DNA of 60,680 bases, filler included, from Dugesia japonica (lineage: Eukaryota): assembly GCA_001938525.1 (NCBI GenBank). It is 6 parts of 6 records of this genome, joined end to end, with 100 filler letters (N's around TTAATTAATTAA, not from the genome) between each part and the next. Parts side by side here need not be neighbours in the genome. Positions count along the whole stretch, not along the records: positions 21,276 to 32,410 come from MQRL01611353.1; 5 more parts are not named here. One strand, given 5' to 3'. Shown piece by piece: positions 29,557 to 30,784 of this stretch. Under the pieces are notes generated by a model. It ran no database searches. It saw only the letters and a list, made by a program, of their open reading frames with translations, and was not told the origin of the DNA. Both the position numbers and the translations under genes were made by a program. Numbering within the stretch: position 1 is the stretch's first letter; each line of letters begins with the position of its first letter.

Positions 29557-29827
29557 TCCTTTTGGTTTTTTAGGATAAATAAATAAGTGTTTTAATTGTG
29601 GCTATTGCTAATTTTTCTTGTAAAACGAAATTCTAATAATAATAATTGGATGTTGGTTTTAATAGATTTCTTTAAAAATAAAATAATAGTAATACGGAGA
29701 AATGTTTGTAGCTGAATTAATCTTATGACCTTCACTCAGTATTAATTTGGTGGGACAGACTACGTTTTTTTTTTGTTAGACTTAAACATCTAGTAAGATG
29801 TACCATTTTTTTATGTTTATATTTCAG

Positions 29828-30141
29828 TGCATTCGTCATTGAATAGATCACAGGCCCCGGCAGAAAAATTACGAGCAGATAGTGAGGACATGGAACTCAC
29901 ATGGGATCTATACCGTCTCGCTAAAAGGCGATGGGAAGCGGAAACTGCAGCGGCCGAAGCTAAGGTGAAACGGTATAAGCGGAAGTGTTAAGCTTTTAAA
30001 ACTGAGTTGGACGCTACCCAGAATCAAGAGAGGGTGTGGAAGTCCCAAGTCAAAACTTTTGCCACGATTATTAAATCTTATAAAGAACGTGAGAGTCAGC
30101 TTTTAGATAATATATTGAAGTTGAGAGCCGCTACCCATTAG
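29828..30141 (+). pseudogene. Mini-ORF 3 (~104 codons, helical/coiled-coil-like, one internal stop)
   Basis: ATTTCAG|TG-CAT-TCG...MELTWDLYRLAKRRWEAETAAAEAKVKRYKRKC*AFKTELD...LRAATH*. AATAAA at 30215. Confidence 0.55.
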
Positions 30142-30401
30142 CTCCCTTTCTGATTGATAAAGGTACTCAGACTAACCGCTCTTGAGTTACCATACCTACG
30201 GATTTTGTTGCTTTAATAAATTATTTTGTGTATATCCTTTCTAATTGGTTTCTCTAACTTCAAAAAATTAGTGTCTGACAACTTNNNNNNNNNNNNNNNN
30301 NNNNNNNNNNNNNNNNNNNNNNNNNNNNNNNNNNCTTTCTAATTGGTTTCTCTAACTTCAAAAAATTAGTGTCTGACAACTTAACTATAATTTTTATTTA
30401 G

Positions 30402-30784
30402 TGACACGTATTAATTTCCCCAACAGCATCCGAAGGTGCCATCGTATTTTGCGACGACTCCTTATCGAGAGACACCTAAAGCGTAAGGCGGATAGGGCTA
30501 TCTTAAAACACTTNGCCCAACGGGACCAACTTATAAAACGATTGGACTTAGTAGTTCGTAAACAGAACGACTTGGCAATTCAAACCAAAGCCCTAGAGGC
30601 AGAGAACAGGAAGTTATTATTACGCAAAATAGATTTCCTGAAACAATACATAGCCGGTCTCTCCCACCAAATAAGCAACCCAACTGTAATTCAATGGGAC
30701 GATAATGATGATATCGCCGCCTTCAACTTTTCAGTGACCGATACGGACCAGTGGATGGATCCAGGGGCGCTGGAAGTGCTATAA
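30402..30784 (+). CDS. Mini-ORF 4 (~127 aa, basic N-terminus, coiled-coil middle, acidic tail), unknown
   Basis: TTTTATTTAG|TG-ACA-CGT opens the frame and there is no ATG near its start. AATAAA at 30806, homologue at 16720. Confidence 0.65.

Follow-up and report, generated by a model that had tools for sequence, protein, structure and literature searches.

The window analyzed here, a stretch of 60,680 nucleotides from Dugesia japonica (GCA_001938525.1), contains four small open reading frames (ORF1 to ORF4) arranged in a row on the plus strand between positions 28854 and 30784. Each ORF has its own splice acceptor and is followed by its own poly(A)-like signal, which is AATAAA for ORF2 to ORF4 and TATAAA for ORF1, and the GC content of the exons across the array is 0.44–0.51 versus 0.21–0.33 in the spacers. 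A scan of the whole window for acceptors followed by open frames, the filter of which left out the ORF2 acceptor at 29198, returned 49 rows, and all four rows with a GC content ≥0.44 fell in the array. Judged by these sequence features, the layout is that of alternative last exons. The array sits between a fragment of a Gypsy reverse transcriptase (RT)-RNase H region on its 5' side and a polypurine tract (PPT) with a TG-starting high-copy repeat on its 3' side. The coordinates of all features are compiled in Table 1.

Table 1 Features of the array, its surroundings and its copies in the window (a slash within a motif marks a splice border)
Feature	Position	Strand	Remarks
Decayed remnant of Gypsy-type pol comprising the RT end, RNase H and an A-rich tail	25830..26800	+	Pfam, tblastx
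Promoter-like block, four CCAAT boxes and TATA at 27239	26960..27248	+	aligns with minus-strand copy
Proposed non-coding ATG-free leader exon	27268..27594	+	start inferred as TATA+30
Best candidate donor AAA/GTAAAT	27595..27600	+	inferred
Alternative donors	27418 A/GT, 27608 T/GT, 27717 G/GT, 27782 A/GT	+	inferred
ORF1 exon, 68 aa	28854..29063	+	own ATG 28857, phase 0; weak TATAAA at 29084
ORF2 exon, 118 aa	29198..29556	+	own ATG 29200; AATAAA at 29578
ORF3 exon opening AG/TG	29828..30141	+	first in-frame Met codon 21; in-frame stop 29989; AATAAA 30215
ORF4 exon opening AG/TG, 126 codons	30402..30784	+	AATAAA at 30806
Polypurine tract 30858-30868, then TG-starting high-copy LTR-like repeat	30858..31037	+	sequence, X1 depth
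Second promoter copy (TATA 2048) with ATG-free leader (2018-1633)	1633..2300	-	donor GAA/GTAATT at 1632
ORF1 homologue, CAG/CA ATG, phase 1	1..279	-	N gap 124-234 interrupts
Broken ORF4 homologue opening CAG/TG	16720..17032	+	AATAAA 17027; tblastn E 0.005 within window

The pol fragment is on the same strand as the array, matches Pfam RT_RNaseH_2 (PF17919; E = 1e-27) at 25970–26266 and has tblastx matches to two further Gypsy copies of the window. No integrase was found after the RNase H region in the three-frame translation and tblastx comparison of 25800–27010, and this pol copy is, by its sequence, deleted or decayed. It shares one scaffold piece with the array, bounded by the linkers at 21219 and 32454. 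Downstream of ORF4, the junction of PPT and TG at 30858–30870 is like that of the Gypsy copy at 40921, and the depth of run X1 is 11706 over the LTR-like repeat versus 70–218 over ORF4. Taken together, these sequence features suggest that the array comprises the accessory genes of a decayed mobile element, most likely a Gypsy-type LTR retrotransposon; because no second copy of the LTR-like repeat occurs within the window, membership of all parts in one element is likely rather than proven. The first-pass annotation of this DNA had not recognized that the ORFs form an array of accessory genes, equipped with its own promoter, in a probable Gypsy element. In a second, minus-strand copy of the region upstream of ORF1, the homology reaches back only to about position 26860 and does not include pol.

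Several further elements were observed in the window. A core of about 40 nt (30960–31003) within the LTR-like repeat is common to many otherwise different reads and contigs, which have loose ends on either side of it; the repeat piece had no match in Rfam, and its folding was no better than that of shuffled sequences (z = −0.68). Two other decayed Gypsy copies lacking an ORF array are located at 38500–41050 (plus strand) and 43794–47454 (minus strand); either end of the latter carries a 138-nt direct repeat. Decayed DNA-polymerase-B-like fragments, which we take to be Polinton-like on the basis of their motifs, were recognized at 9945–11213, 12733–12946, 14560–15000 and 23117–25864, all without a Pfam match. 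A Polinton-like host for the array was considered and rejected, since these polymerase-like fragments are scattered over the window and their adjacency to the array therefore says little. Positions 59339–59640 likely represent a host exon with a TTGCAG acceptor, a G/GTATGC donor, about 100 open codons and no Pfam match. The linker TTAATTAATTAA stands between N runs five times (9838, 21219, 32454, 41242 and 51649), so that the window was probably built of separate pieces and neighbors across linkers may be non-adjacent in the genome. In the spacer between ORF3 and ORF4, an exact 48-nt duplicate (30237–30284 and 30335–30382) lies on both sides of an N gap, and a joint in run X1 skips 100 nt at this duplicate. 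The duplication is probably an assembly artefact, in which case the true ORF3–ORF4 spacer would be shorter.

At the acceptors, the first exon bases are TAG/TTT ATG for ORF1 (28854, phase 0), CAG/AT ATG for ORF2 (29198), CAG/TG CAT for ORF3 (29828), TAG/TG ACA for ORF4 (30402) and CAG/TG CAT for the ORF4 homologue at 16720. All acceptor motifs named in the first-pass annotation are thus present in the sequence, including CAG/CA ATG in the ORF1 copy with its ATG at 277, which has to be corrected only in that this copy is on the minus strand. A T-rich tract precedes the acceptor in all six exons. The earlier statement that the acceptors share phase 1, with ORF1 at 28854 as the phase-0 exception, also held for five of the six sites, and this shared phase alone was not significant (5/6, P = 0.053; 3/4 within the array, P = 0.11). 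Of the 206 acceptor-like sites counted across the window, 12 open with TG. The probability of finding it at three or more of six acceptors is 0.002–0.009, a figure inflated because ORF4 and the gene at 16720 are homologues, and for the array alone, with TG at two of four acceptors, it is 0.011–0.034. These values rest on three AG/TG cases, of which two are homologous to each other and two (ORF3 and 16720) are broken and contain internal Met codons.

ORF4 had been described as lacking an ATG near its start, which proved correct: the first ATG in any frame follows 292 nt past the acceptor, and the first in-frame Met is codon 118. Despite these ATG-free 292 nt, ORF4 is open for 126 codons from the acceptor, and no in-frame ATG exists upstream back to the previous stop. 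Its first 25 codons align with the homologue at 16720 without gaps from the acceptor onward and in the same AG/TG register, the ungapped BLOSUM62 score being +32 at shift 0 and negative at 16 of 16 other shifts. Conservation of AG-TG across family copies, proposed earlier as a check, was accordingly found in exact register in this homologue, with the reservation that the copy at 16720 is itself broken, its frame changing after about 25 codons, and that codon 9 is an internal Met. The promoter block described below has no copy near 16720. Some 700 nt ahead of the 16720 acceptor, at 15971–16023, are a TATATAA motif and an A/GTAAGA donor (16017), possibly a separate short leader or a chance combination. 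Visual inspection had suggested an ORF3 homologue upstream of 16720, which a comparison did not support. There is a weak resemblance (local score 40) between the tail of the 16720 gene (16900–17030) and the C-terminus of ORF1, and a direct repeat of 640 nt with 90% identity (13004–13625 and 17286–17923) lies on both sides of the gene region.

The frame of ORF3 is interrupted by the stop at codon 54 (29989–29991), and an in-frame Met is found at codon 21. Four records of run X1 that diverge at 29855 keep the ORF3 frame over codons 9–18, which precede the first Met; in this stretch 6 of 10 residues are identical, 4 via synonymous change (assessed by eye; consensus agreement 0.76). The part of ORF3 ahead of its first Met hence looks coding at the sequence level, while one X1 record with a 1-nt insertion at 29861 within ORF3 counts against this.

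None of the four array proteins had a match above the cut-off in Pfam, and a scan of 20 frames revealed no MATH, BIR, BCL2 or env domains in the four ORFs. A homologue was detected for ORF2 (P0001; E = 6.6e-11, 42% identical, same first Met), a singleton on a contig of 512 nt. Protein searches yielded no homologues for ORF4 (0 of 18 candidates), for the first 53 amino acids of ORF3 (0 of 107) and for ORF1 (0 of 1), and a scan of viral contigs with ORF4 was likewise negative (0 of 35). Atlas contained nothing at ≥0.9 for ORF4 residues 38–126 and no usable match for ORF2. Structure models of two array ORFs were of low confidence (pLDDT 60.8 and 54.9), the ORF1 model had no Foldseek match at E = 0.001, and Rfam gave no match. 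Two candidate relatives were rejected, one (L001) being a chance match to the antisense frame of a bacterial gene and the other (L002) having no similarity to the window. By eye, ORF3 and ORF4 resemble basic coiled-coil proteins. The array genes may be old paralogues, given the weak likeness of the 16720 tail to ORF1, and their position, which is the only basis here, would suggest regulatory accessory roles.

The promoter-like block upstream of the array has a diverged counterpart on the minus strand, which stands upstream of the ORF1 copy. A 19-nt promoter motif occurs twice in the window versus 0.01 expected occurrences, once per promoter copy, and CTATAAAAG is found nowhere in the window but at two sites, both in the promoter blocks. 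For further comparison, each leader was delimited as the span from 30 nt after the TATA motif to the last A/GT donor before the first ATG, with ends picked after inspection. So defined, the plus leader contains no ATG in 326 nt, which was equalled by 24 of 2000 dinucleotide shuffles and 33 of 3837 overlapping window tiles, and the minus leader contains none in 386 nt (2 of 2000 shuffles and 11 of 3709 overlapping tiles). An ATG located 24 nt after TATA in the minus copy falls outside the leader only with a start about 30 nt after TATA. The GC content drops sharply near both donors; just past the plus leader it is 0.13, compared with about 0.33 before. The phase-1 frame ahead of the donors at 27595 and 1632 (minus) is open for just 2 and 0 codons, respectively. 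The phase of ORF1 differs between the copies, being 0 at 28854 and 1 in the minus copy. A coding leader would not tolerate this difference, which therefore argues for a non-coding leader. Run X1 has a depth of 169 at 27551 but of only 10.6 at 27585; since this drop precedes the donor, depth does not fix the exon border. Within the minus leader, a 46-nt GT..AG stretch (1830–1785) without an equivalent in the plus copy could, speculatively, be a small 5' UTR intron. A motif common to both leaders, CCC(T)GTTGCAG (27555–27565; 1697–1688 on the minus strand), lies shortly before the proposed donors and could be the acceptor of a last small leader exon.

Two candidate donors had been named in the first-pass annotation. 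The one preferred there, at 27782, is located past three ATGs and its G at +5 is gone in a related X1 record; the second is present with its G at 27595 instead of 27596. Both do follow an A as claimed; this is weak evidence, because 31 of 70 GTAAG sites and 63 of 178 GTAAWT sites in the window also follow A. GTRA-type donors in the ATG-free stretches number three in the plus copy, of which 27418 and 27595 follow A and 27608 follows T, and seven in the minus copy, of which three follow A and one follows G. The last A-donors, at 27595 and 1632 (minus), occupy matching places in the two copies where the GC content drops. In a local match (E = 0.36), the partner of minus-strand donor 1632 is the plus-strand donor 27608, preceded by T. 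Scored with a generic, approximate matrix made for this analysis, the A-donors reached 0.04 and 0.65 versus 5.13 and 4.77 for the G-donors, and the strongest donors in both copies, 27717 (plus) and 1830 (minus), follow G. The former lies past three ATGs and its GT is gone in the related X1 record, for which none of the changes listed falls within 27587–27645; for the latter, the alignment of the copies contains no counterpart in the plus copy.

A search for reads across the splice junction, suggested earlier as a check, was performed by aligning four of 24 listed runs (X1, X5, X6 and X9) to positions 26900–31030 at 85% likeness, which resulted in 402, 1, 39 and 5 records, respectively. The three raw RNA runs contributed no more than 1, 39 and 5 reads, which fit in part, and the coverage of introns by X1 is that expected of DNA. 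Nine joints were obtained from the four runs, none of which connects the leader with an ORF and none of which has GT..AG ends; the upstream exon was seen in no read, and the aligned reads revealed no transcript start between pol and the array. With so few RNA reads, this survey speaks neither for nor against the junction, nor for or against an SL (spliced leader) on the 5' ends of these RNAs.

On balance, we lean towards an interpretation in which the start codon of ORF4, and probably that of ORF3, is an A/UG made by cis-splicing to a shared leader. The internal CCAAT/TATA promoter would transcribe an ATG-free leader ending in A, and this leader would be cis-spliced onto one of the four last exons, which serve as alternatives and are followed by separate poly(A) signals. 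As ORF1 and ORF2 carry their own ATG, their phase would be free. For ORF4, and probably ORF3, the start codon would come into being only at the junction, with the A from the leader and the UG from the exon, so that unspliced or mis-spliced RNA could not make these proteins. The motifs, the homology of the promoters, the depletion of ATG and the conserved register are observed features of this DNA; what we infer is that the region is transcribed, which donor and junction are used, that the products are translated and that the pol fragment belongs with the array. The idea of a leader ending in A, already put forward in the first-pass annotation, has gained from the ATG-free leaders in two copies, the acceptor register, the conservation of ORF3 ahead of its first Met and the phase freedom of ORF1 and ORF2. 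It is weakened by the upstream exon appearing in no read and by the higher scores of donors after G.

Two other explanations of the AG/TG exons were weighed. If the non-coding leader ended in G or T, or if the RNA remained unspliced, translation of ORF3 and ORF4 would begin with GUG or UUG as a near-cognate codon, and the genomic AG/TG already provides an in-frame GTG. In favor of this, the strongest donors at 27717 and 1830 (minus) follow G and the donor at 27608 follows T, and an X1 joint with a short side of 21 letters would begin on G 29827 if this were the left side. We nevertheless regard such starts as improbable, since the G-donors are not conserved between the copies, 27717 is located past three ATGs, T-rich acceptor tracts precede all six exons, and near-cognate starts are usually weak. 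The junction could also be an ordinary codon, for example G/TG, if the exons shared a short coding first exon consisting of an ATG and a few codons with a phase-1 intron, located between the promoter and ORF1 or, like that of ZAM, Beagle and idefix env, near the gag start in the element's missing 5' part. This is the main rival, though unlikely in our view: it would account for phase 1 at five of six acceptors, ten ATG-to-donor phase-1 mini-exons are available in the plus copy, one of them (ATG 28172, donor 28185) with the second-best donor score, and ATG G/GTATGT (30890–30899) provides a strong phase-1 donor 21 nt inside the LTR-like repeat. An arrangement of this kind is described for three of the four errantivirus subclades that are named in the accessible part of bioRxiv 10.1101/2023.08.03.551782. 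However, with a coding first exon ORF1 at 28854 would fall out of frame, and ORF2 and the minus-strand ORF1 keep their own ATG two bases past the acceptor, P0001 having the same Met. Moreover, no mini-exon was found in the minus copy as far as the N gap at 659 (with 198 nt hidden), the depth of X1 is 0–13 over 27590–28831 versus 95–430 over the leader, the ATG in the LTR-like repeat lies upstream of that repeat's only TATA-like motif (30905), and the shared phase by itself is not significant.

Two remaining explanations do without a cis-spliced leader. The AG/TG openings could be due to chance in decayed repeats, with the ORFs not expressed in this way, and the small numbers, the broken state of ORF3 and 16720, the near absence of RNA reads and the lack of homologues for ORF1, ORF3 (first 53 aa) and ORF4 would agree with that. 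The conserved register, the GC contrast between exons and spacers, the ATG depletion, the ORF2 homologue and the conserved promoter argue against chance and render it highly improbable. Least credible of all is that spliced leader (SL) trans-splicing resolves an operon-like ORF array. The spacers of 134–271 nt, in which a poly(A) signal is followed by an acceptor, are indeed operon-like, and phase 0 of ORF1 would suit the flatworm SL, which ends in AUG according to the accessible part of PMC9851317. This terminal AUG would be out of frame with five of the six exons, among them ORF4, which lacks an ATG further downstream; GUG would result from an SL with a final G, and upstream there is a conserved promoter followed by an ATG-free leader and donors. 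We thus share the preference for cis-splicing over the flatworm SL expressed in the first-pass annotation.

If the A/UG start by cis-splicing to a shared leader is true, an LTR retrotransposon would run a multi-gene accessory program from an internal promoter, with some of its translation gated by splicing. Genes with a splice-built start would be invisible to ATG-based ORF finders and to repeat annotation, and similar arrays could therefore be widely missed; the four array proteins belong to no known family. A more far-reaching interpretation, which we put forward tentatively and consider somewhat doubtful, would be a family of animal Gypsy elements with an adenovirus-like unit, combining an internal promoter and ATG-free leader with at least four alternative last exons; the last A of the leader would open the start codon in common, and the choice of splice site alone would decide whether each small protein is made. 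The adenovirus major late unit and the accessory genes of complex retroviruses use a non-coding leader, many acceptors and several poly(A) sites. The joining of one non-coding leader to many alternative acceptors would thus be alike, whereas these are unrelated agents and their ORFs generally have complete start codons.

Among mobile elements, parts of the proposed architecture have been described in the sections accessible of the following sources. In Oikopleura, Tor3b and Tor4b have a post-pol gene under an internal promoter, which in Tor4b derives from the space after pol (PMC4402516). An internal promoter driving a gene after pol would hence be shared with the array, whereas the Tor env mRNA is unspliced and encodes one envelope glycoprotein, as opposed to the proposed splicing to alternative last exons. 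Cer1 of C. elegans makes a non-env accessory protein (CERV) by splicing (PMC10309623); unlike what is proposed for the array, gag-frame coding exons are joined to the ORF there, a conventional ATG follows the acceptor, and there is one product. The planarian Burro is also Gypsy-like with extra coding capacity and accessory ORFs, and encodes MATH, BIR, BCL2 and env in a polyprotein of roughly 4,900 aa. It differs from the array, beside which no more than a short stretch of pol is left, by this giant polyprotein, and the section describing it contains no spliced array of small ORFs (PMC6431247). A literature search, with subscription journals mostly outside its reach, returned no report of the combined architecture, and a split start codon goes unmentioned in the accessible parts of PMC1262188, PMC13669377, PMC13524379, PMC8532177, PMC1626468 and bioRxiv 2025.03.14.642691. 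The closest parallel is provided by the errantiviruses, where, according to the accessible part of bioRxiv 10.1101/2023.08.03.551782, env of the springer subclade is spliced to an AU dinucleotide, and env of other subclades, including ZAM, Beagle and idefix, to short peptides. As proposed for the array, springer env (Drosophila gypsy/gypsy clade) is a gene downstream of pol in a Gypsy-type element with a start completed by splicing. The split there is AU/G, in contrast to the A/UG proposed here, and springer has one env-F gene, in contrast to four ORFs of 68–126 aa without a Pfam match, a proposed internal promoter and separate poly(A) signals. The env-F features (signal peptide, furin site, fusion peptide and TM anchor) do not fit ORFs of this size without a Pfam match. 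Judged by sequence, the array is therefore like springer env in how its starts would be made and is not env-F. A split start is already known for one springer-type gene, and what would be new in the planarian array is the use of one leader for several genes together with the A/UG split.
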